Below, piece by piece: positions 5,001 through 37,648 of a stretch of 64,000 nucleotides of DNA. The stretch's first letter is position 1. The number at the start of each line of letters is the position of its first letter. Below the pieces are notes generated by a model. That model had not been told where the DNA came from. It worked only from the letters and a program-made list of their open reading frames with translations, and did not search any database. The position numbers and the translations under genes were made by a program. Source of the DNA: Candidatus Cloacimonadota bacterium (GTDB lineage: Bacteria; Cloacimonadota; Cloacimonadia; JGIOTU-2); the NCBI GenBank assembly GCA_016932035.1, contig JAFGDR010000022.1, positions 1,226 to 65,225 of the forward strand, given 5' to 3'.

Positions 5001-8000
5001 AAAATAAAGAGTGTCCTGTAATGGGATTCGAATGAACATCCAGTCATTATATTCGGAAATAATTACTTCAGGATCGACGTTCTTAAGATCAATCGCATAC
5101 TGGAAATAGTTATTTCTCGTATCAAGCACATAGTTTTTGTTCAAATCCTCAGTATCCAGACGCCCATTTACTTCTGCTCCGTTAATGCCGCTATAATCTG
5201 TTGAACCTGCAGAATAATTATAATCATCATTTCCATCATCAATACCCTCAATTCCATCAAATTCATGGCTTTTGGGAGGTACCGGATCTGTTCCCTGAAC
5301 ATTATCGAGCCCGACATCTTCACCAGCATCGAGTACTCCATCCTGGTTTAAATCTTCATAGTTCAAAACATTGTTTGGGTGTGTTATCGGATAATAATCC
5401 TCGCTCATCGTGCCAAGATTTATAAAAAGTGTGTCACCCTGATCAGCATCCTTTGCTTTATACGTCAGTTCAAGATATTTTTTCTTCTCAACATCCTCTG
5501 CTGTCCTGCCAAAGCTTTTCATAATACCACCCCAATTCGGAAGTGATGATAGAGGGTCAAGTTTGCATTCCAAGACTGAAACATATTCTCTGCCCTCTTG
5601 TTCAGGAAGATCAGGATAGATATCCTTTTTCTGATATACATTATGAGGATTATACCAGCTAAAGTCACCTCTTGTTATAAGTGAATCAATCATTAATGAA
5701 TCAATAATGAGAGGCCAGCTCGCAAAATCATATTCAGTTCTGCTGAGCCCTATTGAGAATATCTCATTGATCGCTTCCATGTCATCGATATATGCTTCCC
5801 CTTTATCAGTAGCATTGGGATCTGGAATGTTCATGGCAACTTCACCGGAAAGATTCACGGTCGACGTTTCTTTTGTTCGTACAAGCGGTATCATATCGAC
5901 CAGGTCAGTGACAAACGGCAACTCCGCTCGTATAGAACCGTCAATATCCCCCACAAATGCTTTTGTTGGTTCTCCTCCTACTTTTACGTGTTTATTGCCT
6001 GTCGAACCACCCTCATACATAAAAGTTGCACCGATCTTTGCATTATCGTTGAACTCATAGTCCGCTCGAACACCGAACATGCTCTTTTTATCAATATTAA
6101 AGAATGGTTTGTATTCAAAATCAACCTTAACTACTGCATTCGGGTCACTCGCGGCATCTCCTTTAAGGCGAACCGTACCAGAAAAATAGTCGATGTCATA
6201 GTCAACTCCCTTTTTCATAAGTTCACCATCAACATAGACCTTTTCACTGCCTTCAATGATATTGATATGTCCCAGGTTTATGGTACTTCCTACAGTATTT
6301 GATTTTACGCGAACATAGAAAGGATTATAGTCTGTAATGTCCGGATTTCTTTCATTGTAGACCATAGGATTTCCTAACGTTGAGCTATAATCAGAAAACC
6401 AATAGGGTTGGAATGGTTCCCACATACGGAATTGAGCGATCCCTTTTTCAAGATCGATTGTTTCATCACTACCATTTACCTTGCCATCACCGTTCGTATC
6501 TAAATCAAGAATATCGATGAGCTTATGCTGAACATTATTAATAGTAATTTCGAAAGTCTCATTTCCATTATTGTCTGGATCTTCGTAAAATATCTTAACG
6601 TCAAAATCCTGTGGATCTATATTAGTTCCACCAAGGCTATAAATGTTCTTCACCTGATAATTCCATTTTGCATCCGGAAGTTCTGAACTTGGAACCAGAT
6701 AACTCTTTTTAATCATTTTTACATGTGGAACGCCATCTATGTATTCTCCCCACTTTTTACCGCTAACCTCTTCATAGATTACACCAATCGCATAATTGTC
6801 CGAAATACCTACCCCAAATTGTATCATATAGGGAGCATTTTCATAATCGATAAAGAATTCTTTGATCGGATCTGTAAGTTGTCTGAACTTATATTCATTA
6901 CCATGCTGGTCATATCCAGTAACATCGATTGCCGGATCAAAATTCCCATCATCAATAAATACTTGTACTGTTCCCTGTTTGGGCATTTTATCTGCTATAT
7001 AGTACCACTCTGTCATAGGAAGTGTGTCTGGGTTAACAAAATGACCCTGAGCATCTAGAAACAAGCTATCGGGTTGGTTAAACAGAAAATATTTATTCCG
7101 AACAAAGCTTTTATCCAGGTAATCTGTTTCCTGCTCGACTGCGTTGCCTGTGGCAGATGCAGATGCCTGCTGACCTTCCTGCTGACTGACAATGGTGGTG
7201 AGTCGTAGTTTACCGAACTCAAATTCACCCTTTATACCAAAAAGGTCCTCGGAGGAAGCAGAGTAGCTTAAGAACTGGGAACCGGACAAAGACAGCCTCG
7301 TATCACCCAACTCGATAAGTTTTATCGGGTCGTCTTCATCACCAACATATTTGATGCTGATCTTATTCTTTTCAAAAATTGATTCATCTGAGGTTTGTTT
7401 TACTTCGACTTTGATCTTCTTTCCTATAGTACCGCTTATGCCGAGATTGAGTTTCTGCTCCATTTTCAGGTCAGGAAAAAACCCCTTTTTCGTTCCTTCG
7501 GTAACCACTTCAGGTTTTCGGATAGTCGAAGAGCCACCAATCGTGATCTTTTGAGAACCGGTCACTTTCAGGCGTCCGATATTATCCCCAAAGAAACGCT
7601 GCATAGCTTTGGGCATCTTGATCTTAGGAAATTCAATGTCCGGAATGATACCCTGTGACTCCCGATCCTGGAGGCGGAGTTGTTCTGCTTCGTCTATGTC
7701 AACGATCATCATATTATAGAATTTTTCCCGAAAACGGGCGTTCATATAACCGGGAAGTCCAACTGCAAAGGGAGCATGTATTCGTGCATCACCAAACGTA
7801 CTGCTTACTAACACCCTCTTTTTTCGTATATCGATATCATCCGACTGTGCATAGAGAGAATAGCTGTCAAAATACCTACTGAACTTCTTTCTGGGAAATA
7901 CCTCTTTCAGAAGATAGTTCATGACTTCAGCTGAATCTTTTTTAGCCATAAGCGGCATTGAGAATGGATAGTTAAATAGAATCGGGAATGATGAGGTTCG

Positions 8001-8327
8001 TTGGATGTATTTTTTCTTTTTCTCCTTTACCCGAACTGAATCCTGCTGCTTTTCATGCTGTTCGGTCAAGTTCAGTGTATCTGTTTGACTAATTGTATCT
8101 GTAATTCCGAGTTCGGGTGTTTCAATGAAAAGTGTGTCTGTTGCTATCAGCAGTGTATCTTCGTGTACTTCGCCAGCGCTGTCCGTCACCTTCTCTGTTA
8201 CTTCATGTGAGGTTTCTTTCCCTTCATGTATAACAGTCTCCGCCTGTATTGCATTGTATTGCAGCAAGGTGTAACCTATTCCAATAAGAAACAGGAAAAT
8301 GATGGGAAAAACTGACTTATTTTTCAT
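2076..8327 (-). CDS. Giant (2083 aa) outer-membrane protein, candidate SprA/Sov-like type IX secretion translocon. TamB/AsmA-like is an alternative.
   Basis: N-terminal signal/anchor. Long stretches of amphipathic beta-strand-like, Tyr/Thr/Asn/Gly-rich sequence. The C-terminus ends in an aromatic beta-signal ('...INIWVEFKF'). A Glu-rich acidic insert lies at about plus 3040-3260. T9SS-CTD cargo genes occur elsewhere in the window. Confidence 0.4.
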   Translation of the reverse strand: MKNKSVFPIIFLFLIGIGYTLLQYNAIQAETVIHEGKETSHEVTEKVTDSAGEVHEDTLLIATDTLFIETPELGITDTISQTDTLNLTEQHEKQQDSVRVKEKKKKYIQRTSSFPILFNYPFSMPLMAKKDSAEVMNYLLKEVFPRKKFSRYFDSYSLYAQSDDIDIRKKRVLVSSTFGDARIHAPFAVGLPGYMNARFREKFYNMMIVDIDEAEQLRLQDRESQGIIPDIEFPKIKMPKAMQRFFGDNIGRLKVTGSQKITIGGSSTIRKPEVVTEGTKKGFFPDLKMEQKLNLGISGTIGKKIKVEVKQTSDESIFEKNKISIKYVGDEDDPIKLIELGDTRLSLSGSQFLSYSASSEDLFGIKGEFEFGKLRLTTIVSQQEGQQASASATGNAVEQETDYLDKSFVRNKYFLFNQPDSLFLDAQGHFVNPDTLPMTEWYYIADKMPKQGTVQVFIDDGNFDPAIDVTGYDQHGNEYKFRQLTDPIKEFFIDYENAPYMIQFGVGISDNYAIGVIYEEVSGKKWGEYIDGVPHVKMIKKSYLVPSSELPDAKWNYQVKNIYSLGGTNIDPQDFDVKIFYEDPDNNGNETFEITINNVQHKLIDILDLDTNGDGKVNGSDETIDLEKGIAQFRMWEPFQPYWFSDYSSTLGNPMVYNERNPDITDYNPFYVRVKSNTVGSTINLGHINIIEGSEKVYVDGELMKKGVDYDIDYFSGTVRLKGDAASDPNAVVKVDFEYKPFFNIDKKSMFGVRADYEFNDNAKIGATFMYEGGSTGNKHVKVGGEPTKAFVGDIDGSIRAELPFVTDLVDMIPLVRTKETSTVNLSGEVAMNIPDPNATDKGEAYIDDMEAINEIFSIGLSRTEYDFASWPLIIDSLMIDSLITRGDFSWYNPHNVYQKKDIYPDLPEQEGREYVSVLECKLDPLSSLPNWGGIMKSFGRTAEDVEKKKYLELTYKAKDADQGDTLFINLGTMSEDYYPITHPNNVLNYEDLNQDGVLDAGEDVGLDNVQGTDPVPPKSHEFDGIEGIDDGNDDYNYSAGSTDYSGINGAEVNGRLDTEDLNKNYVLDTRNNYFQYAIDLKNVDPEVIISEYNDWMFIRIPLQDTLYFKPLGQGGVAWDYIQSVRLWMKTETSDDKIIDIETFELVGNKWVASTIMDTTLHKPSNLQPDEVFEVATENNLNNPDYTPPPGSLIDDDDKEKEIEQSLVLNIQNLEPDRYVYAKETFSEKLDLLNYSKVKLWVYAQHATGPPPNASNTETIVFRLGADTSNYYEYRQPVQVYDDIDTKMLESRWQGITIDFTEFTNLKRSDVPDTTSRLRIVGNPSLGYVKQVVVGLVRPDSMQTSFSGRIFFDDIRVSDAYGEVGMAARLTLDTKFADFADLQLSFERKTPNFYSLGATGGSNQDSYSYSLRNNLYLHKFLPGDWGFNIPLKFDYTYGESKPRFKPNSDVKLTTSEEKNEYKTLSETRNASLSLRKSKKSTNFFSKLLLDNTFIKATVQQSKTLSPTKRDTTLKYTGTFDYTLNIGKKLLTLKIFEKFNFYFVPQKIILNTNYTYSKFNSWSKQVQDTVFINDKKAPVHTLNPKLTVNYELFTDFDADYILNMTRDLTKTNKVGNLNIGVESSRNQDVTLEYVPQFMKFFNFNTKYKTIYKQSRRENLQNDSLSIQYEVENEKTTSANVTLKFSKWGKDIMELIDIEEVVEKDGKEEIIEEEEEKEEIPEIDERELEDIERKKQMENEDPELGKQNELIDSVQVEKIEEEITEKDDGRAAFNFQKMVMYVTKVVGYSVKMLGNADFSYTNTYKTKYFAPPDSLPGIYYQLGLRDQTAGSIQSTGQSDAFSVNTRTTFEVFSFLSADLNAKYTIDLTKASGNKTKSESIVLPGVMLSFNSIDKLLKAKFMTGSNLSTSFTRLISNTGQGFWETPEQTTEKYQFTPLLSFNTKLLNKINTNLGFNYTFSDQKSYTGNFKQTHTNEMGLSMTFRYSFQAAKGIKIPLLGRLKMNNKTDIDLNVSYTSNRSQYTDTSNQQWQDANHKNVLKIEPRIAYNFSRDINAGLTARYESSKDVKAETSSTTTAINIWVEFKF

Positions 8328-25034: not shown

Positions 25035-27203
25035 ATGAAAAAAATTGCTATGTTTAGCGTGATGCTACTCGTGCTCGCTGGAATGGTTTGGGCAAATGAT
25101 ATACCTCAGCCAATCAACAATAATTCATATGTTCCGGCAGAAGCTCCAAAGCATCTCAAAGTTGCCTCTCCAACCCGTAATGACGGCAACTTCGATGTTC
25201 CCGACTGGGAATTCATCCAACAACCAACAACTCTTGCGGGTTTTACTAACTACTATGACTATATGCCAGGTAGTTACTGTGGTCGCCCTTTAATGACTCA
25301 ACCCGATGCATTCGGTGGAGTCTACTTCGTATTCCACGGTCGTCCAAATACAACCGATAATAGAAGAGTTTATTGGGCGTATGTGCATGCTGCTGGTAAT
25401 ATTGAATATGCAACAATTACCACTTCTGACACATGGCAGGGTTATCCTGGAATGACCATGCATCCTGCTTCTGGCGATCCTATTGTCTCATGGCATGATA
25501 TTATGGACTCGGCCACCCCTGAAGACACGAACACTCGTGTAACTTATGATGACTACGGTCTTCTGTTTATACCCGGCTTCTGGAAAACACCTGTAACATT
25601 TGACCAGCCAATTCCTTACGTTGACGAATATATCTGGCCTTATATGTACATTGGAATGGCTCCTGATTATGCTACTACCGGCAACTACCGTGTGTATCAG
25701 ATCAGTGGTCAGAATCCTGATGGTGAAATCGAACACGACATCCTTCGCTGGATCGATGTTCCTGAAGACACCTATGTATATGGCGATCTTGAAATTATGC
25801 TGAACAAGAACAACTGGTCTCCTTACGTAAACATTTCACGTGACTGGTCAGATCCCGCAGCCGGCATCGACTGCCGTCCATATCCCTCATTTGCCGTAGA
25901 TCCATTCACTGCTGGACACGTGGCAATATTCGGTTACGCCGGATACACAAACGGTCTTGTTGGTGGTGAAGTTGTACCTCAGGGCTTCTACGTTTGGGAC
26001 TCTTATGATGGTGGAGCAACATGGGATTATGCAAACTTCCATTCATATCAAACAGATGTTGGTATGTACAATGAATATGTCATGTGGGCTGTTGACAATG
26101 TTCCTGGTTTTGTAGATGACAGCAGTATTCCTTATCCTGAACTTCATGTCTGGATCGGTTGGCCCGGTAACCAGCATTCAACCCACAGAACAGCAACTTT
26201 TGATAGTGAAGGAAATCTTCACCTTCCAGAACAATTCTGGATAAGTAACGTTGATGGTGCAGCAGGAAATGCATCGTACTGGCCATATTATCTCTTCCAA
26301 TATCAAGTTGAAGTTGTTTACAAAACTGATGGCACCTGGGAAATCCGCGAAGTTCCGAATCTACCTGGTGTCGATGCTATGAGCGGACACACAGTACCAT
26401 GGGAAATCGAACCCGTTAGTGGTGATACTCTCATTTACCCTTGGCTTACCATGCCATTTACCGATATTACAACCGTCGGTTTCCATGAAAATACTCAACG
26501 AAATGCTGCTAACTTTGAAAACAGCTGGATGGTTCAGGTATGGGATGACGGCACAAAAACACTCATGGCTGAAAATGCTATTCCTGGATATGACGCATAT
26601 GCAACTCATCCAATTCTTTATGTATCTGCAACCAATAACAACGGTGAAAACTGGAGTGCTCCAATTGAGCTTTCCGATATTTACAGTACTGCATTCCCCG
26701 GTTTTGCAGACATGATCACCATGTATCCATATATCAATCCAACGATCAAAGATCTTGGTGATGGCTGGGGACAGATCGACATGTACTTCTTTGATGATAA
26801 TGATTATGGTAGCTCGATTCAGCAGATGGGTCCGGCAACTGGTGGTGAAATGGTCTATTGTTCATTCAAGATCGATTTTGCAAATATGATCGTATCAACA
26901 GATCCTTCACAGTCACAACCGGAAGCAACTATGACACTTCGCAATGTTCCGAATCCTTTCTTCTCACATACTCAAATCCAGTTCTCGGCTAATGTTGGTG
27001 TTGAAAATGCAAAAGTCACGATCTATAATACTAAAGGTCAGCTTGTAAAATCTATTGATGCAATTGCCGATTCTCATACTGCAGGACATGCAATGTGGGA
27101 TGGTACCGATGAGTTTGGTAAAGATGTAGCAAATGGAATCTACTTCTATAAAGTAGAAACCAATGGTGCTACAATTGCCAAAAAGATGATGCTCAATAGA
27201 TAA
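25035..27203 (+). CDS. Secreted BNR/Asp-box beta-propeller protein with a T9SS C-terminal sorting domain (paralog 1 of 3)
   Basis: Signal peptide. Asp-box motifs 'SYDGGATWD' and 'TNNNGENWS'. C-terminal 'NPFFSHTQIQF...VTIYNTKGQLV...NGIYFYKV...KKMMLNR'. GGAGG RBS. Confidence 0.6.
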   Translation: MKKIAMFSVMLLVLAGMVWANDIPQPINNNSYVPAEAPKHLKVASPTRNDGNFDVPDWEFIQQPTTLAGFTNYYDYMPGSYCGRPLMTQPDAFGGVYFVFHGRPNTTDNRRVYWAYVHAAGNIEYATITTSDTWQGYPGMTMHPASGDPIVSWHDIMDSATPEDTNTRVTYDDYGLLFIPGFWKTPVTFDQPIPYVDEYIWPYMYIGMAPDYATTGNYRVYQISGQNPDGEIEHDILRWIDVPEDTYVYGDLEIMLNKNNWSPYVNISRDWSDPAAGIDCRPYPSFAVDPFTAGHVAIFGYAGYTNGLVGGEVVPQGFYVWDSYDGGATWDYANFHSYQTDVGMYNEYVMWAVDNVPGFVDDSSIPYPELHVWIGWPGNQHSTHRTATFDSEGNLHLPEQFWISNVDGAAGNASYWPYYLFQYQVEVVYKTDGTWEIREVPNLPGVDAMSGHTVPWEIEPVSGDTLIYPWLTMPFTDITTVGFHENTQRNAANFENSWMVQVWDDGTKTLMAENAIPGYDAYATHPILYVSATNNNGENWSAPIELSDIYSTAFPGFADMITMYPYINPTIKDLGDGWGQIDMYFFDDNDYGSSIQQMGPATGGEMVYCSFKIDFANMIVSTDPSQSQPEATMTLRNVPNPFFSHTQIQFSANVGVENAKVTIYNTKGQLVKSIDAIADSHTAGHAMWDGTDEFGKDVANGIYFYKVETNGATIAKKMMLNR

Positions 27204-27415: not shown

Positions 27416-29497
27416 ATGAAAAAGATTGGAGTAATTTTACTCTTTTGCTTTCTTCTATCTATAAGCGTACTTCATGCAGAATTTATGAACCCTGACGGTT
27501 CAGAACGAACTGCTATTACAGACATCAACGTCGGCAAATTAGTTCCTATAACACAAGTCGATCATCGAGAAAACACACCGGTTCCCGACTACAGCTTCTA
27601 TACAAATCCAACTACGATCATGACGTCCTACTATGACTATATGCCCGGCTCATATGAAGGATATCCATTACAGAAGCAGACCGATAATGGAGATGGATTG
27701 TATATTACATGGTTTGGCACAGCAACAACGACCGCAACACGTCGTCAATATTACGCATATGCTGATGCATTTGGAAGTATTGGTGGCAACTGGGGAACAA
27801 TTTCAACATACGATCGGACCCAGGGATACGGAAGTGTAGCTGTTCATCCCGCTACTGGTGACTGTTTTGCAACCTGGCATGAAAATCCATCAGGATCAAA
27901 TTATGGTTGTGTAATCTGTTATGATGACTATTCCCTACTTAGCATTCCGGGTTTTTGGTCTTCAGTTACTTTTATACCTTCTCCACTTCCTGATGAATAT
28001 ATCTGGCCCTATGTCTATGTTGGTCCTTCTCCAAATGGAGATGGTTGGATTCGGTTGTATCATATCTCAAAAAACTACACTCACGATGCATGGGATCATC
28101 CGTGTGAAGATCCTCGAATCATGTATATTGATGTTGAGAATACTCTTTTTGCTGATATGACTGTTATCCTGAACCTTAACAATTGGACTACAGTAAATCC
28201 AATGTATTATTGGAGAGCAAAGTCATGCCGTCCTCAATCACAAGCGTTTGCAATTGATCACAGTACTCCCGGACACGTTGCTATCGTAGGATACTGTTCA
28301 TGGCTTGAAGGTGATCTCGGTGATATGCCTGTTGATCCAGGTTTCTATATTTTTGAATCTTTCGACTATGGAACAACATGGGATACGGCAAATCTGCATG
28401 GAGATGGTCCGCAAGACTTTATTTATGCGGTTGAGAATATTCCTCATTTCACAGATAATAGCGGAAACCTTATCGACAGTATTAAAGTAGATTCATACGG
28501 ATGGCATGATACTGCCCAGTTTGATGCAAATGGTGTTGCTCATCTTTGTTACCTGCAACAGTATGGATATACCGATGATGCAGGAGACAGCTATTATTTT
28601 AATCATTTCCTCCCGCAAGCAGAAGCAGTTTGGGATGGTATAGCGTGGGATTGGCATAACGTGCCAGCCTTCCCGGGTATCGATCCCTGGACCGGAAGAG
28701 ATGTTCCTTGGGAAATAGTTGGTAATGATACACTTCTCTACGTCTCTGTTTCTTATAATAAATATCCAGAAGATTCTGAAATATTTCACCAGAACACCCA
28801 GAGAAATGCCATCAATAAAGAAAACAATTGGATGGTACAATTCTGGACTGACGGAACGTATGTTCAACTTGCAGAAGACGGTGACCCAGCATATGCAGCA
28901 TATGCACAACACCCGATCCTCTATCTCTCAGTATCTTCAAACAATGGTGATACATGGTCGGAACCTATTGAACTTTCGGATATTTATAGTACTCAATTTG
29001 ACTTCTCGGGACAGATAACAGTCTATCAAAATTTGTACAACTACATTGAAGCTATTAATGACTCGGTTGGTCGAGTTCATATCATGTACTATGATGATAA
29101 CTCATTCGGCTGCTATATCCGTTCAGGAGCTGGGCAGGATGTTGGCGGTCAAATCACCTATTGTTCAGTTGATATTGTATTCCCACCGTTTTCAAATGAT
29201 CCTCAGCCCTCTGTTCCTGTTACCTCACTTTCAAACTATCCCAATCCATTCTTTGCGTCAACTACCATTAATTTCACGGCAAAGAAAGCATATCAAAATG
29301 CGGAGATCAGTGTGTATAATACAAGGGGACAGCTGATCAACACTTTGCATGTGAATCACGGTGACAATCCTTCAGAAGGATACGCTGTATGGAATGGTAA
29401 AGATGCAGCTGGTAAGAATGTTGCTAACGGTATTTATTTCTATAAGGTAGATGTCGATGGCTCATCTCTTACCCAAAAAATGATGTTAACAAGATAA
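27416..29497 (+). CDS. Secreted BNR/Asp-box beta-propeller protein with a T9SS C-terminal sorting domain (paralog 2 of 3)
   Basis: Signal peptide. Asp-boxes 'SFDYGTTWD' and 'SSNNGDTWS'. C-terminal 'NPFFASTTINF...ISVYNTRGQLI...NGIYFYKVDVDG...KMMLTR'. GGAGG RBS. Confidence 0.6.
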   Translation: MKKIGVILLFCFLLSISVLHAEFMNPDGSERTAITDINVGKLVPITQVDHRENTPVPDYSFYTNPTTIMTSYYDYMPGSYEGYPLQKQTDNGDGLYITWFGTATTTATRRQYYAYADAFGSIGGNWGTISTYDRTQGYGSVAVHPATGDCFATWHENPSGSNYGCVICYDDYSLLSIPGFWSSVTFIPSPLPDEYIWPYVYVGPSPNGDGWIRLYHISKNYTHDAWDHPCEDPRIMYIDVENTLFADMTVILNLNNWTTVNPMYYWRAKSCRPQSQAFAIDHSTPGHVAIVGYCSWLEGDLGDMPVDPGFYIFESFDYGTTWDTANLHGDGPQDFIYAVENIPHFTDNSGNLIDSIKVDSYGWHDTAQFDANGVAHLCYLQQYGYTDDAGDSYYFNHFLPQAEAVWDGIAWDWHNVPAFPGIDPWTGRDVPWEIVGNDTLLYVSVSYNKYPEDSEIFHQNTQRNAINKENNWMVQFWTDGTYVQLAEDGDPAYAAYAQHPILYLSVSSNNGDTWSEPIELSDIYSTQFDFSGQITVYQNLYNYIEAINDSVGRVHIMYYDDNSFGCYIRSGAGQDVGGQITYCSVDIVFPPFSNDPQPSVPVTSLSNYPNPFFASTTINFTAKKAYQNAEISVYNTRGQLINTLHVNHGDNPSEGYAVWNGKDAAGKNVANGIYFYKVDVDGSSLTQKMMLTR

Positions 29498-29626: not shown

Positions 29627-31708
29627 ATGAAAACGATTATCTTTACAATTATTCTATTAAGCGTTTTAATCTTTCCAATTCAGGCAAAAACTCTCAATCC
29701 AAATCCCAATGAAGCAATTCCTTTTTCTGAATATCCCGATCTAAAAATTGTTCCTTTTAATACTACTTCAAATAGAGAGAACTATCCGGTTCCGGACTTC
29801 AGTTTTAAAACAGTTCCAACAACGATCATGACATCATATTATGACTATATGCCTGGATCGTATGAAGGATTTCCCTATGGGCTGCAGTCAACAATTGGTA
29901 GTGGATATTATCTGACGTGGTTCGGCACTGCTTCTACAACGGCAAACCGTAGGCAGTATTACGCTTATATTAATAGTTCAGGAGTTAATGAATCATGGGG
30001 CACCATATCGAACTATGATATCTGGCAAGGTTACGGAAACTGCACGGTTCATCCCGCAACCGGTGATTGCTTTGCAACCTGGCATGAAGATGGAGATGCA
30101 ACAGGCTACTTTGGCACAACATTTGTTTATGATGATTATGCTTTATTAGGCATACCGGGATTCTGGTCTACGGTCACATATCTTCCACCAAATCTTCCTG
30201 ATGAATATAATTGGCCATACTTCTATGTTGGTCCTTCACCAATGGGAACAGATTACCTTCGTTTGTACCAGGTGTCTAAAAATTTTACGAATGATGCTTG
30301 GGAGAATCCCTGTGAAGATATGCGCATCATGTATATCGATCTGGAAAACACACCTACTGCCGATCTTTCACCTATGTTGAATATGGCTAATTGGACAACT
30401 CAATGGCCAATGTATTACTGGAGATACAAATCATGTCGTCCCTATTCCCAGGCATTTGCAATCGATTATGAAAATCCCGGTCGAGTTGCGATCATCGGAT
30501 ATGCGGTATGGCTTGAAGGTGATCTTGGTGACATGCCGGTCGATGAAGGATTTTTCGTATGGGAATCCAACGACTATGGAACGACCTGGGATGGAAGCAA
30601 TATTCACGGTGATGGTCCAGGCGAAATAATATATGTTGTGGAAAATATTCCCCAGTTTGAGGACAATAGCGGCAATATTGTAGATGAAGTAGAAGTTCAA
30701 TTGGCTGGATGTCATAACACTGCTGTTTATGACAATGACGGCTCTCTCCATCTAACCTTTTTGCAGCAATATGGTTTTACAGATGATGCCGGTGATTTCT
30801 ACTACTATAATCATTTCCTTCCCCAGGCAGAAGCTGTCTGGACTGGAACTGAGTGGGAATATCATGAAGTACCTGGTATGCCCGGTATTGACCCCTGGTC
30901 TGGGCACACTGTTCCTTGGGAAATTGTCGGTAATGACACGATCCTTTATACTACGGTCGGTTTCAGCAAATATACGGGCACCTCAAATATTTTCCACGAA
31001 AACAATCAGCGAAATACCGTGAACCTTGATAACAACTGGATGGTGCAGCTCTGGTCAGATGGAACATATGTTCAGCTGGCTGAGGATGGTGATCCGGCAT
31101 ATCAAGCTTATGCAGAACACCCAATCCTCTACATTTCTGTATCCTCAGACAATGGTCAAACCTGGTCAGATGTCATCGAATTAACTGACATATATAGCAC
31201 ATTGTACAACTTCTCAAATGAGATAACCGTCTATCCTAACCTTAGTAATCATATTGTTGATATGGGTAATAACTATGGACTTGTTTATCTATATTACTAT
31301 GATGACAATTCTTTTGGCTCATTTGCACAAAGTGGGCAAGGTCAGAATACCGGTGGTCAACTCAACTATTGTGAAGTGCAAATTCTGTTCCCGGATTCTA
31401 TATCGATAGATCCAGCTCATTATAATCCGATCTCATTAGTTTCCAATAATCCCAATCCTTTCTTCGAAACGACCAGGATTAATTTCACGACCAAGAAAAC
31501 ATATCAAGAAGCTGCAATCAAGATCTATAACCCTAAAGGACAACTCATTAACACCCTAGAAGTGAACCATGGTGGTAATCCATTTGAAGGATTTGGCATT
31601 TGGAATGGGAAGGATCTGAAAGGTAAAGATGTTACAAATGGGATCTACCTTTATAGGGTGGAAGTAGATGGATCTTCCTATGTAAACAAGATGTTACTTG
31701 CTCGATAA
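29627..31708 (+). CDS. Secreted BNR/Asp-box beta-propeller protein with a T9SS C-terminal sorting domain (paralog 3 of 3)
   Basis: Signal peptide. Asp-boxes 'SNDYGTTWD' and 'SSDNGQTWS'. C-terminal 'NPFFETTRINF...IKIYNPKGQLI...NGIYLYRVEVDG...KMLLAR'. High identity to paralog 2. Confidence 0.6.
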   Translation: MKTIIFTIILLSVLIFPIQAKTLNPNPNEAIPFSEYPDLKIVPFNTTSNRENYPVPDFSFKTVPTTIMTSYYDYMPGSYEGFPYGLQSTIGSGYYLTWFGTASTTANRRQYYAYINSSGVNESWGTISNYDIWQGYGNCTVHPATGDCFATWHEDGDATGYFGTTFVYDDYALLGIPGFWSTVTYLPPNLPDEYNWPYFYVGPSPMGTDYLRLYQVSKNFTNDAWENPCEDMRIMYIDLENTPTADLSPMLNMANWTTQWPMYYWRYKSCRPYSQAFAIDYENPGRVAIIGYAVWLEGDLGDMPVDEGFFVWESNDYGTTWDGSNIHGDGPGEIIYVVENIPQFEDNSGNIVDEVEVQLAGCHNTAVYDNDGSLHLTFLQQYGFTDDAGDFYYYNHFLPQAEAVWTGTEWEYHEVPGMPGIDPWSGHTVPWEIVGNDTILYTTVGFSKYTGTSNIFHENNQRNTVNLDNNWMVQLWSDGTYVQLAEDGDPAYQAYAEHPILYISVSSDNGQTWSDVIELTDIYSTLYNFSNEITVYPNLSNHIVDMGNNYGLVYLYYYDDNSFGSFAQSGQGQNTGGQLNYCEVQILFPDSISIDPAHYNPISLVSNNPNPFFETTRINFTTKKTYQEAAIKIYNPKGQLINTLEVNHGGNPFEGFGIWNGKDLKGKDVTNGIYLYRVEVDGSSYVNKMLLAR

Positions 31709-31733: not shown

Positions 31734-31763
31734 AAAGCCTGTTCTCACGAGCAGGCTTTTTTC
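31734..31763 (+). terminator. Rho-independent terminator after paralog 3
   Basis: aagcctg...caggctt stem plus tttttt. Confidence 0.55.
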
Positions 31764-31830
31764 AATCATTAGTTGACAAAAATTAAGCTCGGAATAAATC
31801 ACTTATAAAATTAATCCCAAGGAGGATGTA

Positions 31831-32433
31831 ATGTTAAAAAAAAGTGTTTTATTATTGGCACTTGTTGCACTTATTGTGTCATGCGGAGGACCTACCAAGC
31901 AGGTTTCCCGCGTGGGGGTCGATGAGACTATTGACCTTAGTGGCCGCTGGAACGACTCAGATGCTCGTATGGTTTCTGAAAACATCGTTGAGGATGTTCT
32001 CGATGGTGCATGGCTAATGAACTGGCTGGATGAATATGATGAGAAACCAATTGTTATCGTTGGAACAATCGGAAACAAAACAAGCGAACATATCAATACA
32101 GAGACATTTTCTACTGATATCGAAAGGGAACTTGTCAATTCTGGAGAAGTTCGTTTTGTTGCTGCCAAAGAACAGCGTGATGAAATTCGCGATGAACGTC
32201 TTGATCAGCAAAGTCAGGCAACAGAAGAAACAGCTAAAAGACTTGCCCAGGAACTCGGCGCTGATTTTATGCTTCAGGGAACGCTTTCATCTATCGAAGA
32301 TTCAGTTGATGGTAAAAAAGTAGTGTATTATCAGGCAGATATGAACCTGGTAAATCTCGAAACGAGTGAGATCGTTTGGATGGGATCAAAAAAGATCAAA
32401 AAATTTATGGAACAATCAAAACTTAAATGGTAA
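31831..32433 (+). CDS. LpoB-like lipoprotein (COG3417 penicillin-binding-protein activator LpoB / TolB-N-like fold family)
   Basis: Lipobox 'IVSCGG'. Colinear with E. coli LpoB: 'KPIVIVGTIGNKT', 'RELVNSGEVRFV', 'ELGADFMLQGTLSS', 'ADMNLVNLETSEIVWMGSK'. AAGGAGG RBS. Confidence 0.6.
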   Translation: MLKKSVLLLALVALIVSCGGPTKQVSRVGVDETIDLSGRWNDSDARMVSENIVEDVLDGAWLMNWLDEYDEKPIVIVGTIGNKTSEHINTETFSTDIERELVNSGEVRFVAAKEQRDEIRDERLDQQSQATEETAKRLAQELGADFMLQGTLSSIEDSVDGKKVVYYQADMNLVNLETSEIVWMGSKKIKKFMEQSKLKW

Positions 32434-32438
32434 TCATA

Positions 32439-34040
32439 ATGAAAAAAATATTATTTTCAACTATCATATTATCTCTTGTTATATTGTGCTTTTTAGGATG
32501 CTCGAGCATGAAGACATCAAAAGCTCAATATGCAGGAATGATGGAAAATCTCCGTGCAAATGACTTCAAAACTTGTTTAACTCAAATCGAAGAAGCAAAA
32601 GAGAAGCATTATAAAGAAAAGGAGAAAGTGCTGTTCTACCTTGATGCAGGCATGCTTTATCATTATTGTGGTGATTACCGGAAGAGTAATGAATACCTTG
32701 AAAAAGCTGAATTTGCTATCGAAGATCTCTACACTAAAAGTATCGGGAAAGCTGCAGCTTCTGTCCTTCTCAATGATAATGCACTCGATTATTTCGGTGA
32801 AGATTATGAAGACATCTATCTGAATATCTTTAAAGCACTGAACTATCTTCATCTGAATGATCCTGAAGATGCGTTCGTCGAAATTCGTAGGATCAATAAC
32901 AAACTCAATCTTCTGGAAGACAAGTATAAAAAAATCGCTGATGAGTATAATAAATCCGATGATAAGAAAAGGGATTTCAAGATAGGTGATATAAAATTTT
33001 ATAATTCGGCACTTGCCCGTTACTTGAGTATGCTTCTTTATTACACTGAAGGAAAATATGACGACGCCAGGATCGACCTGAAAGAAATCAGAGAAGCCAT
33101 CGAAAATCAGCCGACAGTCTATAACTTCGAAGTACCACCTCTTGAATCACATATTGCAAAATCAGACAGTATTCCCATCTACTTCCTATCTTTTGTTGGT
33201 AATTCTCCAGACAAGAAATCAAACACACTCTGGGTGCATACAGAAAAAGACATGCTGATCATTGCGACATCTAAAGAAGTTTCTGAAAACAGTAAAAATC
33301 CTGATATTAAAGATGAAGCAGGTAAACTTGCAAAAGAAACTGGTGAATTTGTATCGTCTGTTGGTAATATCTTTAAGAAAACCGATACTGAAGAGAAATC
33401 AAGTTCATCGAGCAGTAGCTCTTCCAGTAAAAAATCATCCGTTTCAATACCACACAAAGAGACCGAAACTGAAGTAGAAACAAAAAATGACAGTCAATAT
33501 GAAGGCACATTGGATATCATCGAATGGGAAGATATGGAAGCTGGGTACCATTTTAAATTTGATCTTCCCTACATGGACTTGATCGGTACAGACATTGCAA
33601 AGATCGCGGTCCTCATTAATGACCAGATGGCCGTTGAGTTAATACCACTTGAAAGTATGGAACAGGTTGCTTTCATTACATATAAAATTAAAGAACCACT
33701 AATATATCTAAAGACAATCACCCGAACAGTTGTAAAAGGAATTCTCGCAGAAAGTGCAAAACAGGAGATGGTAAAACAGACAGGTGATAATCTTTTTGGT
33801 AAACTTGCCATGATTGCTACTGATGTCGGTGTGGACGCAACAGAAAACGCTGATTTAAGAATATCTCGTTTTTTCCCGGCGAAAGCTTTTGTTGGGCATT
33901 TCTTACTACCAGAGGGTATATATAACATTCGTATAAATTATTATAATTCAGACAACAAACTCGTTTATTCGGATTTGAGAAATAAACAACACATAACCAA
34001 AAACGGATTACAGTTGTTTGAGTCGTTTTATTTAGATTAG
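32439..34040 (+). CDS. Lipoprotein with an N-terminal TPR-like region, a poly-Ser linker and a C-terminal domain of unknown function
   Basis: Lipobox 'FLGCSS'. TPR-like 'LFYLDAGMLYHYCGDYRKSNEYLEKA'. 'SSSSSSSSSKKSS' linker. The listed ORF start at 32427 overlaps the upstream gene. Confidence 0.4.
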   Translation: MKKILFSTIILSLVILCFLGCSSMKTSKAQYAGMMENLRANDFKTCLTQIEEAKEKHYKEKEKVLFYLDAGMLYHYCGDYRKSNEYLEKAEFAIEDLYTKSIGKAAASVLLNDNALDYFGEDYEDIYLNIFKALNYLHLNDPEDAFVEIRRINNKLNLLEDKYKKIADEYNKSDDKKRDFKIGDIKFYNSALARYLSMLLYYTEGKYDDARIDLKEIREAIENQPTVYNFEVPPLESHIAKSDSIPIYFLSFVGNSPDKKSNTLWVHTEKDMLIIATSKEVSENSKNPDIKDEAGKLAKETGEFVSSVGNIFKKTDTEEKSSSSSSSSSSKKSSVSIPHKETETEVETKNDSQYEGTLDIIEWEDMEAGYHFKFDLPYMDLIGTDIAKIAVLINDQMAVELIPLESMEQVAFITYKIKEPLIYLKTITRTVVKGILAESAKQEMVKQTGDNLFGKLAMIATDVGVDATENADLRISRFFPAKAFVGHFLLPEGIYNIRINYYNSDNKLVYSDLRNKQHITKNGLQLFESFYLD

Positions 34041-34048
34041 GATAGACT

Positions 34049-35077
34049 ATGAAAAAAATCGTACTATTATTCGTTCTTATATTTATGTCTTGTGCTCCTT
34101 CAATGGTAACAGCAAAAAAGAACAAAACGCCAGATTGGATCATGAATCCTCAGACCAAATACAAGGATTCGTACTACCTTTCGGCTGTTGGATCCGGTGA
34201 TACAAAAAAATCTGCTGAGAAAGACGCATACTCAAATCTCTCCAAAATATTTCAAGCTGAGATAAAATCAGATGAAACACTCGTCCAAAAATTTGAAGAG
34301 ACCACCATTGGTGACAAAACATCACTTTCTGCTGAGGAGAAGATGCGTAATCTCACACAGATTCAGAGTGAGCAGACCTTAAAAAACGTTAAAGTGGGTG
34401 ATTCTTTTTTTGATCCCAATAGTGGTGAGTACTACGTCATCGTATATTTAAATAGGAACGAAACGGAAGACATTTATCATAACGAGATCTTTCAAAACAC
34501 ACAGAAGATAGATCAATATTACGCTCAGTTTGAAGCCGGGTTATCTAAACTCGACAAGCTTAAATATCTCAGCGAAGCGATTGATTTTGCCGAAAAGAAT
34601 GAGATACTGAATGCACAACTTCGTATTATATCACCTTCCAATGCTGGAGTAGAACTCAAACAACCTCTTGAGAAACTTGTTGCTGAGAGAAATACTTTTG
34701 CGCGATCGATCCATGTTATTGTTGAAGGTTCGGGTGAATACAAAGAATATCTCGATGACTATCTTACAGAGGTTTTTAATAATTTTGGTTTCTCGGTTTA
34801 TGATTCACCAAAGGATGCAGACTATATTGATTTCCACATAGAGAGCTCTCTTTCAATATCTCAGATCGACCTTAATCGCGATGAGGAATTCGTGCGTTGG
34901 GAGTTATCAATTACTATAATTGATAAGATCAGCAATGCAGAAGAAGTTGTTTATACAAAGAGTGATCGTGAAGGTCATCTAAATTTAACTGAAGCAGAAA
35001 ATAGAGCTTTGCGTTCAGTAAAAAAAGTTATCCAAAAAGATTTCTTTAAATTCTTTGCAGATAAGTATTTGTCATAA
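34049..35077 (+). CDS. LPP20-family lipoprotein-like protein
   Basis: Lipobox 'FMSCAP'. 'PDWIMNPQTKYKDSYYLSAVGSGDTKKSAEKDAYSNLSKIFQAEI' matches the LPP20 (PF02169-type) N-terminal pattern. Confidence 0.5.
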   Translation: MKKIVLLFVLIFMSCAPSMVTAKKNKTPDWIMNPQTKYKDSYYLSAVGSGDTKKSAEKDAYSNLSKIFQAEIKSDETLVQKFEETTIGDKTSLSAEEKMRNLTQIQSEQTLKNVKVGDSFFDPNSGEYYVIVYLNRNETEDIYHNEIFQNTQKIDQYYAQFEAGLSKLDKLKYLSEAIDFAEKNEILNAQLRIISPSNAGVELKQPLEKLVAERNTFARSIHVIVEGSGEYKEYLDDYLTEVFNNFGFSVYDSPKDADYIDFHIESSLSISQIDLNRDEEFVRWELSITIIDKISNAEEVVYTKSDREGHLNLTEAENRALRSVKKVIQKDFFKFFADKYLS

Positions 35078-35103
35078 CGCTCATTATTTTAATAAAAAAG
35101 TAA

Positions 35104-35131
35104 GGCGAAATCAATTGATTTCGCCTTTTTT
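35104..35131. terminator. Bidirectional rho-independent terminator between convergent genes
   Basis: Perfect 22-nt palindrome ggcgaaatcaa/ttgatttcgcc flanked by an A-run upstream and a T-run downstream. Confidence 0.65.
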
Positions 35132-35152: not shown

Positions 35153-37648
35153 TTAGTTATGAGCCACACCGACTTCATCAAATACGATATTGATGAAAGT
35201 TTTTGCTTCGTCAGGCATCATGTAGTACAAGGGGAATCCAAGAATATATACAGGTTCATCAACAGAAGGATGAATATATTTCGTCCCAACGGGGGCATCT
35301 GCAAATTGTTCATGGATCGCTAAAGTATCAACAATACTTGTGAAGATTGTTTCTGCTGCATTAACGTTTAAGAAGGTTACATTACTTATTTTTCCTAATG
35401 GTAATAAGTATGGAAAGTATTCAGGGAAGAATTTATCACTTGGAAATGCTGGATTTACATCAGCCCAACAGAGTAATTGCATATTAACATCTAACTGATT
35501 AACAGCACTGAAATCGCCTTGACCATTAGCTCCTATGAACATGGAGTTAGTTGTATTGGGGTTACCCCACAACCAGTTATTCGTATCTAGTTCTTGTGAC
35601 AAAGCCGAAAGAGTGTCAGCAAGTCCACCGTATACCTGAAGGAAATTCCTTGTTGCCGGAGTGAGAGGATCTGATATCTTTGCTGAAGCAGAAAGTAACA
35701 CCGAACCGCCAGATAACATATAATATCTCATAACATCATAGTGCTGTATCATATGAACTTTTGTGACATCGCTATAAAAGCCTTTTGGATCGTTTGCATA
35801 CCAGATCACTAATTTATATTGCTGGATATCTGATGGAGCAAAATACGGAGCCATATCATCGTTTCTTAATTGCTTGTTCATCGTGTAAATGGAGGATAAG
35901 TTCGCTCCTCGAATATCAAACCATTTTTTTGTTTCGGTAGAATGCTCAACAAGATTTTCGTAAAATTGATTTACTGAATCCTCTGGTGCAAAAATCGGTG
36001 TATTCTGTGTATCATCGACTATAAGTAAACCTTCTTTTCCGCCATTCAATATTGGCTCATGAAGATAGAATACTAACTCTGAAGGGGTTGGGTCAACAGC
36101 TCCCTGGAAATCAACAGAACGCACCTTGAAAACGTGCTCGCCAGATGTTAAATCAAATATCTTGCAACTCTGTTCATCATATATTGGGATACGCATCCAA
36201 TTTTCACCTGTTACATTATCTGTAATAACAGTCCCAATAGGAGGTAATCCGCTTGCACTTCCATCAAGCTGAATATCCATGTACTCGACATCGCAATAAT
36301 ACTGAACATATTCATCTAAATTTGCATCATAATAATAGGTATGATTTGCTGCTATCCTGGAGCGTTCAACATCGTATTCATACTGACCGAGATATTCCCA
36401 TTTCAAATATATCTCAATATTACTCGACCAGATAGCAGATAATGTAGTATCTTGAGCCATGTAGAACTGGTTGGCATAATGATTTTCACCTGCAATGACT
36501 CGCTTAGGAATATCTTCATTTTCGCATAAGTAGTTCAACCAAGTATAGTCACTGATGACGAAGATATGAGGTAAAATATCAAGGGAACTATTGCTGAGGA
36601 AGTCTGGAAGATAATCTGCCCATTGTGCCATAAATGGAGCAGTGTCTGGGTGGAAATATCCTCTTACAAAAAATATCATGCTTGCATAATCGGGATCTTC
36701 AATACCAGCTTTATCTACAGATTTAACCTGAATCTCAGTCATCTCATACGTGCCGTCAGCGTACTTTTCATTCACTCTTAGTTGAGGTTTCCCATAAGGA
36801 TTACCATCATGATAGTTTGCCATTAGAAGAACTTCATCTTTTACAGGATAATTCTCTGTTGAATACCACTGTGTGCTATCGGTCTGTTCACCAGCAGCAC
36901 TTATTTCGACAGTATCAGTGCCTGTGCTATGATAGTACACGAGACGGTATTTGAAGTACGCAGCCTCATCTCCGTAACCAAATGGATCATCATCATTGAG
37001 GACATTGAATTCAAATGATATTGCTGCACCAAGTCTTACTGAATCGACAGCACCCTGTGAGGTCTGAACACTGGTACTTGGAACATCCGACCAGCTACAG
37101 AAATATCGGGTTGCGATTTCTGACTCTTCGGCATAATTGTCCTTACATTTAACCTCAAACTTGCCAAAATTTCTTTTATAATCGGCAGTGTCTTTTGCGG
37201 TGAAATATACTTGAGTTTTTGGAAATCTTTCCGCCAGTGGAGTCCAAATATCATATTCACCATTGGGCTGTAAATGTAATACCCATCCGTCTGCACTTAC
37301 GCGAACACCATAGGTTTGGTCATATTGCCAGCTTCCATTTGTGCTATCCCATGTTCCGATTCTGTAGGCATAAGATTTTACAACGCCATCAACATCCCAT
37401 GCTTTCCAATATATTTCCTGAAAATATAGTGAATCATAAATGGTAGGATCAATAAGATTACCTATTACATTATACATGGCTGAATCTGTTAAAACAGTAT
37501 CAGGTCGTGCAATTCCGCTATAATCAGATATCTCAATATAAGGAGCAATATTAGGATTTAATGAACCTTTCCTGCCACAGCTTAGAACAGTTAAGACTGC
37601 AATCACTAATAAAATTAACAAAACTAAAAGAGACCTATTTTTTAACAT
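35153..37648 (-). CDS. Large hypothetical lipoprotein (831 aa), last gene of the minus-strand housekeeping operon string
   Basis: Lipobox 'VLSCGR'. No recognisable catalytic motifs. GGGAGG RBS. Confidence 0.4.
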   Translation of the reverse strand: MLKNRSLLVLLILLVIAVLTVLSCGRKGSLNPNIAPYIEISDYSGIARPDTVLTDSAMYNVIGNLIDPTIYDSLYFQEIYWKAWDVDGVVKSYAYRIGTWDSTNGSWQYDQTYGVRVSADGWVLHLQPNGEYDIWTPLAERFPKTQVYFTAKDTADYKRNFGKFEVKCKDNYAEESEIATRYFCSWSDVPSTSVQTSQGAVDSVRLGAAISFEFNVLNDDDPFGYGDEAAYFKYRLVYYHSTGTDTVEISAAGEQTDSTQWYSTENYPVKDEVLLMANYHDGNPYGKPQLRVNEKYADGTYEMTEIQVKSVDKAGIEDPDYASMIFFVRGYFHPDTAPFMAQWADYLPDFLSNSSLDILPHIFVISDYTWLNYLCENEDIPKRVIAGENHYANQFYMAQDTTLSAIWSSNIEIYLKWEYLGQYEYDVERSRIAANHTYYYDANLDEYVQYYCDVEYMDIQLDGSASGLPPIGTVITDNVTGENWMRIPIYDEQSCKIFDLTSGEHVFKVRSVDFQGAVDPTPSELVFYLHEPILNGGKEGLLIVDDTQNTPIFAPEDSVNQFYENLVEHSTETKKWFDIRGANLSSIYTMNKQLRNDDMAPYFAPSDIQQYKLVIWYANDPKGFYSDVTKVHMIQHYDVMRYYMLSGGSVLLSASAKISDPLTPATRNFLQVYGGLADTLSALSQELDTNNWLWGNPNTTNSMFIGANGQGDFSAVNQLDVNMQLLCWADVNPAFPSDKFFPEYFPYLLPLGKISNVTFLNVNAAETIFTSIVDTLAIHEQFADAPVGTKYIHPSVDEPVYILGFPLYYMMPDEAKTFINIVFDEVGVAHN

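Follow-up and report, generated by a model that had tools for sequence, protein, structure and literature searches.

The closest described relatives of the lipoproteins reported here come from Campylobacter and Helicobacter. In Campylobacter jejuni, cj0089-cj0090-cj0091 is a triplet of co-transcribed lipoprotein genes bounded by stem-loops; upon fractionation, the inner membrane contained Cj0089 and the outer membrane Cj0091 (Oakland et al. 2011, PMC3100323). Cj0089 and its Helicobacter pylori relative HP0018 are tetratricopeptide repeat (TPR) lipoproteins of ~450–470 amino acids (aa), linked to LpoB-like genes (PMC11394524, PMC3100323); in enterohepatic Helicobacter, hp0018 adjoins the LpoB-like hp1457 (PMC11394524). 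Deletion of hp0018 results in chains of outer-membrane vesicles and less helical cells, and the protein, which localizes to polar and lateral foci, co-immunoprecipitates the wall hydrolases AmiA and MltD (PMC11394524). The LpoB-like HP1457 flanks lpp20 (PMC12029599, PMC11394524), and the lpp20 operon also encodes HP1454, a three-domain secreted protein whose first domain is Lpp20-like (PMC11756786). The window analyzed here, a stretch of 64,000 nucleotides (nt) from a Candidatus Cloacimonadota bacterium (contig JAFGDR010000022.1), contains at positions 31831–35077 an operon of three lipoprotein genes. With high confidence, their products are an LpoB-family lipoprotein (gene 1, product A), a COG3014-family lipoprotein homologous to Cj0089 and HP0018 (gene 2, product B) and an LPP20/HP1454-like lipoprotein (gene 3, product C).

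The three open reading frames (ORFs) are located on the forward strand and are tightly packed: 31831–32433 (200 aa), 32439–34040 (533 aa, or 537 aa from 32427) and 34049–35077 (342 aa). Every one of them begins with a signal peptide and a lipobox cysteine, LIVS-C18 in gene 1, FLG-C in gene 2 (Cys21 in the 533-aa numbering) and FMS-C15 in gene 3. Gene 1 stops at 32433 and the gene 2 ATG at 32439 follows after 5 nt. The alternative ATG at 32427 would create a 7-nt overlap with gene 1, and the start at 32439 is favored because the homologues begin with MK. Gene 2 stops at 34040, and the ATG of gene 3 lies 8 nt further on. The original prediction, made from the sequence of the window, of three lipobox-bearing genes linked by less than 10 nt was therefore confirmed together with its coordinates. 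A strong Shine-Dalgarno sequence occurs at only one of the three genes, gene 1 (AAGGAGG at 31819–31825 on the forward strand, 5 nt 5′ of the ATG, read from the sequence). The promoter scan called no promoter ahead of gene 1; the hexamer TTGACA at 31773–31778 may correspond to a −35 element.

Hairpins delimit the operon on both sides. Upstream, the terminator of the preceding gene at 31734–31759 (forward strand) consists of an 11-bp stem followed by a T-run and marks the operon boundary; its folding energy is −16.2 kcal/mol (z = −6.6), and 0 of 200 shuffled sequences were equally stable. Downstream, the perfect palindromic terminator that had been predicted is present as a 26-nt element at 35102–35127, with an 11-bp stem, a 4-nt loop and T-runs on either strand. 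Its folding energy is −19.8 kcal/mol (z = −7.1 relative to shuffled sequences, 0 of 200 as good), and the terminator scan matches it on both strands. This bidirectional intrinsic terminator is common to the operon and to a convergent gene at 35153–37648. The presence of hairpins on both flanks means that the three genes are an insulated unit, and the region 31831–35077 is one transcription unit for three lipoproteins, bounded by stem-loops as the C. jejuni triplet is.

The middle gene (gene 2, 32439–34040, forward strand) had been regarded as unexplained, which proved incorrect. Searches of Pfam and NCBIfam yielded sub-threshold TPR matches and nothing else, and neither the single sequence nor the family profile identified relatives among the PDB sequences. 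The family is large, with 3016 representative clusters matching at E ≤ 1e-3 and 338 at E ≤ 1e-30, and its usual length is 440–470 aa. The C. jejuni locus was retrieved with a wobble-degenerate pattern for the peptide FKINMPAM, taken from a published cj0089 primer; the pattern also gave chance matches in Fibrobacter, Bacillus and Verrucomicrobia, where no family member was present. BLASTP aligns gene 2 with Cj0089 at 1e-17 (32% identity across 153 residues), and Cj0089 recovers 266 of the 269 collected gene 2 relatives (E ≤ 10, best 1.3e-25). The hhalign comparison of 84 Cloacimonetes sequences with 28 Campylobacterota sequences extends over 397 columns and both domains, with 99.4% probability and an E value of 7.6e-22. 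The alignment places the conserved ENADLRISRFFP motif of the gene 2 family opposite ADVRSWRGLP, so that an ENADLR/ADVR motif is conserved between the gene 2 and Cj0089 families. Cj0089 carries the NCBI name 'COG3014 family protein', and by these sequence comparisons gene 2 is a full-length COG3014 member, homologous to Cj0089 and HP0018.

The AlphaFold2 (AF2) model of gene 2 (pLDDT 79.4, pTM 0.78) comprises TPR-like helices at residues 34–223 followed by a β-rich C-terminal domain formed by residues 245–280 and 354–531, which includes a long helical hairpin at 407–468. Five residues, Y118, E124, E148, D472 and R474, are invariant across 113 diverse family members. In Foldseek searches the matches of the model were confined to generic TPR proteins, at low TM scores, and the C-terminal domain had none better than E 0.04. 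A CsgG- or TolB-N-like fold had been considered for this domain; no such match was obtained, and the CsgG/TolB-N/GNA1162-like fold is located instead in the C-terminal domain of gene 3.

Between the two segments of the gene 2 C-terminal domain lies a Ser/Lys/Glu-rich insertion, residues 284–352 (33288–33494, forward strand), modeled as disordered with pLDDT below 50 throughout. The poly-Ser run at 33399–33428 falls inside the insertion and is encoded by mixed codons. The insertion is hypervariable, ranging from 0 to ~70 aa in close relatives, and the common 464-aa form has none; the poly-Ser loop is a dispensable, lineage-specific decoration. An NCBI protein from a metagenome-assembled genome (MAG), JW794_03200 (P0001, 510 aa), is 100% identical to gene 2 with 96% query coverage. 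Its annotated start lies ~23–27 residues downstream (in the region 32427–32520) and omits the signal peptide and the lipobox, which looks like a start-codon misannotation that masks the lipoprotein nature of the product. Some gene 2 relatives carry C-terminal extensions, namely Big_2/Ig-like in P0228, GYF_2 in P0243 and unannotated sequence in P0191 (949 aa), P0259 and P0251; P0191 has no LpoB-like gene upstream. These fusion partners were considered as clues to the function of COG3014 and were set aside, as all of them were uninformative.

Gene 1 (31831–32433, forward strand) is a member of the LpoB family, as predicted. It matches the Pfam LpoB family PF13036 at 1.4e-39 (135.8 bits, cut-off 22.3), its sequence matches solved LpoB structures (PDB accession number 4q6z, 6.6e-4), and BLASTP aligns it with Cj0091 at 2e-6. 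The NCBI LpoB equivalog model TIGR02722 is passed narrowly, with 112.2 bits against a cut-off of 110.55, a margin of 1.7 bits; Cj0091 scores 210 bits with the same model. Matches to the FlgT_M profile (0.0022) and to the CsgG profile (E 0.11, 12.2 bits versus 20.8) are weak and remain below the respective cut-offs. Gene 1 shares with E. coli LpoB the family domain and the lipoprotein anchoring. Its lipobox cysteine aligns with that of the homologues, and sorting of the protein to the outer or inner membrane is not predictable for this phylum.

The similarity to E. coli LpoB does not extend to the N-terminal tether. Typas et al. (2010, PMC3060616) argue that LpoB, being anchored in the outer membrane, has to extend across the sacculus before it can contact the UB2H domain of penicillin-binding protein 1B (PBP1B), and they report that LpoB and UB2H, at stringent cut-offs, occur in enterobacteria only. 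When gene 1 is aligned with Cj0091, E. coli LpoB and three further homologues, E. coli LpoB alone is seen to carry a proline-rich insertion of 31 residues in the tether. Only ~25 residues separate Cys18 of gene 1 from the globular domain, and the long tether is absent from gene 1, Cj0091 and the spirochaete homologues alike. The label 'LpoB-like' refers to fold and family and does not imply the function of E. coli LpoB. Because the tether is short and UB2H is reportedly enterobacterial, gene 1 is, judged from its sequence, a member of the LpoB fold family that lacks a defining functional feature of LpoB proper. Gene 1 could alternatively encode a genuine LpoB, an activator of a PBP1B-type class A PBP, genes 2 and 3 being mere co-transcribed accessories, a role with which the TIGR02722 score, the PF13036 match and the sequence matches to solved LpoB structures are compatible. 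We consider it improbable, since the proline-rich insertion is missing, the LpoB-UB2H pair is reportedly enterobacterial, the equivalog cut-off is exceeded by so little compared with Cj0091, and E. coli lpoB does not exhibit the near-obligate COG3014 pairing described below. No PBP family is included among the 25 (of 58) Pfam families displayed for the large ORFs of the window.

Gene 3 (34049–35077, forward strand) comprises an LPP20 domain, a helical linker and an LptE/CsgG-like α/β domain. The predicted LPP20 similarity was verified by a match of residues 28–134 to PF02169 at 4.8e-10 (40.2 bits, cut-off 25.9), which is confined to the first third of the protein. Full-length relatives number 28, in Cloacimonadota, Treponema and other Spirochaetes, and are rarer than members of the gene 2 family. 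In the AF2 model (pLDDT 83.4, pTM 0.73) the LPP20 domain is followed by two long helices and then by a C-terminal domain of β-α-β-α-β-β-β-α topology. The top Foldseek match is H. pylori HP1454 (PDB accession number 4kzs) with an E value of 1.2e-7 and a probability of 1.00 over 303 columns, a target-normalized TM score of 0.52 and 16% sequence identity; the first domain of HP1454 is Lpp20-like, as is that of gene 3. The next matches are FlgT, Cj1090c/LptE, HpaA, CsgG, GNA1162 and PelC. A profile of 24 gene 3 relatives identified no relatives among PDB sequences and did not find 4kzs at E ≤ 10. Comparison by hhalign of the N- and C-terminal domains of gene 3 and the C-terminal domain of gene 2 with the LpoB-like domain and with one another gave nothing significant, the best score being 23.6% probability for the two C-terminal domains. 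The gene 3 family contains two similar conserved motifs, 'AVGSGxxxxxAExxA' at residues 45–60 in the LPP20 domain and 'REGHxxxxEAENRA' at residues 307–320 near the C-terminus, and the likeness of the two sequences may reflect a structural element that is repeated. A chance PDB match, to a double-stranded-RNA-binding domain, has a GxGxSKKxAE motif that is similar to the first of them.

The FlgT similarity bears on the possibility that the three proteins form an outer membrane-associated ring or disk, as FlgT, FlgP and FapH do at flagellar motors, serving here as a general reinforcement of the outer membrane. The gene 3 model matches FlgT structures (3w1e at 3.3e-5 and the LPHT ring 8z5n at 4.2e-4), and gene 1 has the weak, below cut-off FlgT_M match. 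Moreover, FlgP of the basal disk and FlgT are reportedly similar in structure to Lpp20/HP1456, whose domain is present in gene 3, and both HP1454 and HP1456 bind FlgP and FapH in co-immunoprecipitation and two-hybrid experiments (PMC11756786). However, deletion of hp1456 leaves the motor structure and motility of H. pylori unchanged (PMC11756786), no flagellar gene appears among the 25 (of 58) displayed Pfam families of the window, and the module occurs in taxa regardless of the flagellar context observed, all of which make a ring or disk an unlikely assembly for these proteins.

The C-terminal domain of gene 3 resembles LptE (~1e-4), CsgG (4.9e-4), GNA1162 (4hrv, 6.1e-4) and PelC (1.3e-3). 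These matches, together with the TPR domain of B, which can be compared with the TPR scaffolds of polysaccharide export systems, are what a secretion or outer-membrane biogenesis device would show, one akin to curli export by CsgG/CsgE/CsgF, to the plugging of LptD by LptE, or to PelC. Yet the three genes encode neither a β-barrel partner nor a transmembrane hairpin, the CsgG profile match of gene 1 (0.11) does not rise above noise, the genes neighboring the module differ between loci and are unrelated to export, and the fold shared with these proteins is a generic α/β fold of small lipoproteins; an export function is accordingly given a low probability. The Neisseria GNA1162 loci had been offered as the comparison for the operon. 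The DUF799-DUF4810-CsgG clusters to which GNA1162 belongs do encode small periplasmic lipoproteins, and the gene 3 C-terminal domain resembles GNA1162, but the partner families there are not COG3014 or LPP20, and none of the three genes has an above-threshold match to the DUF799, DUF4810 or CsgG profiles; the sole match of any kind is the sub-threshold one of gene 1 to CsgG. The cj0089-cj0091 operon, the HP1454-HP1456-HP1457 cluster and HP0018 are closer.

Conservation of the operon was assessed in 80 metagenome loci that contain gene 2 relatives of 32–74% identity (39 clusters at 70% identity), with neighbors detected by profiles built from the three window proteins. Upstream sequence of 700 nt or more was available for 70 loci, and in 69 of these an LpoB-like gene directly precedes the gene 2 relative in the same orientation. 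Downstream sequence of 1150 nt or more was available for 54 loci, of which 50 have a gene 3 relative there; the median gap between the gene 2 end and this gene is 13.5 nt. Strong co-conservation of the three genes in relatives, whose absence would have spoken against the original prediction, is thus observed. The A-B-C order recurs in a Spirochaetaceae MAG and in two long contigs of Cloacimonadota, a MAG of Treponemataceae carries A-B alone, and the loci without gene 3 have unrelated genes downstream.

The arrangement differs in other taxa. The C. jejuni operon resembles that of the window in that Cj0089 corresponds to gene 2 and Cj0091, an LpoB-family protein with a short tether, corresponds to gene 1, but the genes are arranged as B-x-A, not A-B-C. 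The remaining gene, cj0090, encodes a 122-aa DUF1425/YcfL protein that aligns with gene 3 in the signal peptide only; in the Pfam profile search none of the three window genes matched DUF1425. Regulation by CmeR is peculiar to the Campylobacter operon. The order COG3014-DUF1425-LpoB is found in Campylobacter, in a Helicobacter-labeled MAG and in a MAG of the gammaproteobacterium Thiopseudomonas. In the two MAGs a DUF6844 gene follows the LpoB-like gene, and its product may belong to the module, as a fourth component, in its proteobacterial form. The DUF6844 proteins are ~460–490 aa long (2374–3759 in locus L001 and 6386–7852 in locus L097) and contain a short stretch that resembles the LPP20 β-hairpin motif. 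A relationship between gene 3 and the Cj0092-like DUF6844 protein was rejected, as the profile comparison was not significant (1% probability). In H. pylori the counterparts of all three proteins exist, HP0018 for the gene 2 family, the LpoB-like HP1457 for gene 1 and HP1454 as the top structural match of gene 3. All of them are proteins of the envelope. Their genes are divided between two loci, and Lpp20 is a small protein by itself (PMC11394524, PMC11756786), whereas the window has all components in one operon with the LPP20 domain as part of the HP1454-like protein. In E. coli K-12, ycfL (DUF1425) is directly upstream of lpoB (locus L096, 4248–5280) and no COG3014 gene is adjacent. This is the same pair that is found inside the COG3014-DUF1425-LpoB clusters, which suggests that ycfL-lpoB is a reduced form of a larger module. 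Because the arrangements differ across taxa in this way, the LpoB-fold and COG3014 pair constitutes the stable core and the third partner is variable.

The tight packing of the genes, the single ribosome-binding site and the near-obligate co-inheritance are features expected of the subunits of one complex. The best explanation of the operon is that its products are lipoproteins of a conserved cell-envelope module that form such a complex and have a coupling role, a reading that we place slightly below an even chance. The mechanism that we propose is more tentative still: a membrane-anchored periplasmic complex would couple peptidoglycan remodeling to attachment of the outer membrane. A, B and C would assemble on the membrane in the periplasm. 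The TPR platform of B would dock, regulate or restrain peptidoglycan-remodeling enzymes, as has been suggested for HP0018 with AmiA and MltD, while A, with its LpoB fold, would contact a peptidoglycan synthase or the sacculus and C, as an HP1454-like protein, would supply the contacts close to the outer membrane. Wall remodeling and outer-membrane attachment would thereby be kept coordinated, and loss of the module would be expected to cause blebbing and shape defects. The phenotypes reported for the relatives implicate the envelope, and the organism has a lipopolysaccharide-containing outer membrane, as the window carries lpxB.

NlpI of E. coli, a TPR lipoprotein proposed to dock and scaffold wall hydrolases, provides a functional analogy to the module. 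Its loss causes hypervesiculation, the phenotype also reported for HP0018. The likeness is one of function only; NlpI is not among the top Foldseek matches of the gene 2 model, and it is not known to have a COG3014 C-terminal domain or an LpoB-like partner gene.

Several observations weigh against the proposed envelope-coupling complex. The partners of HP0018 come from co-immunoprecipitation and modeling only, and the complex of A, B and C is one that we infer. The C-terminal domain of gene 2 has no solved structural or sequence relative in the Foldseek and PDB profile searches, and the resemblance of the gene 3 model to HP1454 is at the level of fold only. Passing the LpoB equivalog cut-off, even by 1.7 bits, leaves gene 1 compatible with the classical LpoB role, at the small probability assigned above. 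The deletion of hp1456 has no detectable phenotype in H. pylori (PMC11756786), and a cj0089 mutant has no adherence phenotype (PMC3100323). A cj0091 mutant, on the other hand, adheres less to INT 407 cells and colonizes chicks poorly (PMC3100323), and Lpp20 is a known H. pylori antigen that is present in vesicles; these reports would fit surface adhesins or antigens. Such a function is very improbable for the proteins of the window, because the module is frequent among Cloacimonadota of environmental metagenomes, which are unlikely to be host-associated, an adherence defect can stem indirectly from changes in the envelope, and each of the folds is one typically seen in lipoproteins of the periplasm. 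The description of the operon in the original prediction as an envelope- or peptidoglycan-associated module of undefined function remains a fair summary, the family similarities of genes 1 and 3 and the co-conservation of the three genes having all been found.

Several other genes of the window deserve mention. Immediately upstream of the operon are tandem genes for 693-aa paralogues, 27416–29497 and 29627–31708 on the forward strand, which are 62% identical. The first carries, at its C-terminus, a sorting tail for type IX secretion (Por_Secre_tail, FlgD_ig); the second has the same C-terminal sequence and falls under the Pfam threshold used. A third cargo protein with the same sorting tail is encoded just before the pair (25035–27203, forward strand). 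Elsewhere in the window, a 2083-aa protein (2076–8327, reverse strand) matches SprA_N at 2.9e-32; by this sequence match it is probably the type IX secretion translocon, consistent with the cargo proteins in the window. The convergent gene that shares the downstream terminator (35153–37648, reverse strand) encodes an 831-aa predicted lipoprotein with a signal peptide ending in LTVLS-C and no Pfam family at E ≤ 1e-5.

All three proteins of the operon have described relatives and nothing in it is categorically new. In the literature searched, no description was found of a single A-B-C operon across Cloacimonadota and Spirochaetes, nor of a module that ties the Helicobacter and Campylobacter proteins to E. 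coli ycfL-lpoB, and the literature on LpoB with DUF1425 and on COG3014 yielded no functional study of the module. What the operon adds is that relatives of proteins studied separately, HP1457/Cj0091, HP0018/Cj0089 and HP1454/Lpp20, are united in one transcription unit. The nearly invariable co-inheritance of the LpoB-like gene with the COG3014 gene speaks for one machine and shows experimenters which proteins to delete or pull down jointly. It is also a caution for annotation, in that the name 'LpoB' outside enteric bacteria probably does not imply activation of PBP1B.

How synthesis and cleavage of the wall are coordinated with the outer membrane is poorly known in most non-enteric diderm bacteria, and LpoA, LpoB and NlpI are narrowly distributed. 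It is conceivable, if rather doubtful, that the COG3014 protein and its LpoB-fold partner form an ancient core of two components that is shared by several phyla, namely Cloacimonadota, Spirochaetota, Campylobacterota and, among the gammaproteobacteria, one lineage or more. From the side of the membrane, this core would regulate hydrolases of peptidoglycan, its synthases or both, and would hold the outer membrane attached, with interchangeable third partners that are either HP1454/LPP20-like or DUF1425 proteins. In that case LpoB of enterobacteria would have arisen late, by loss of the COG3014 partner, retention of ycfL and acquisition of the long tether for PBP1B. If this is true, the pair would represent a general counterpart of the Lpo proteins and NlpI in non-enteric diderm bacteria.

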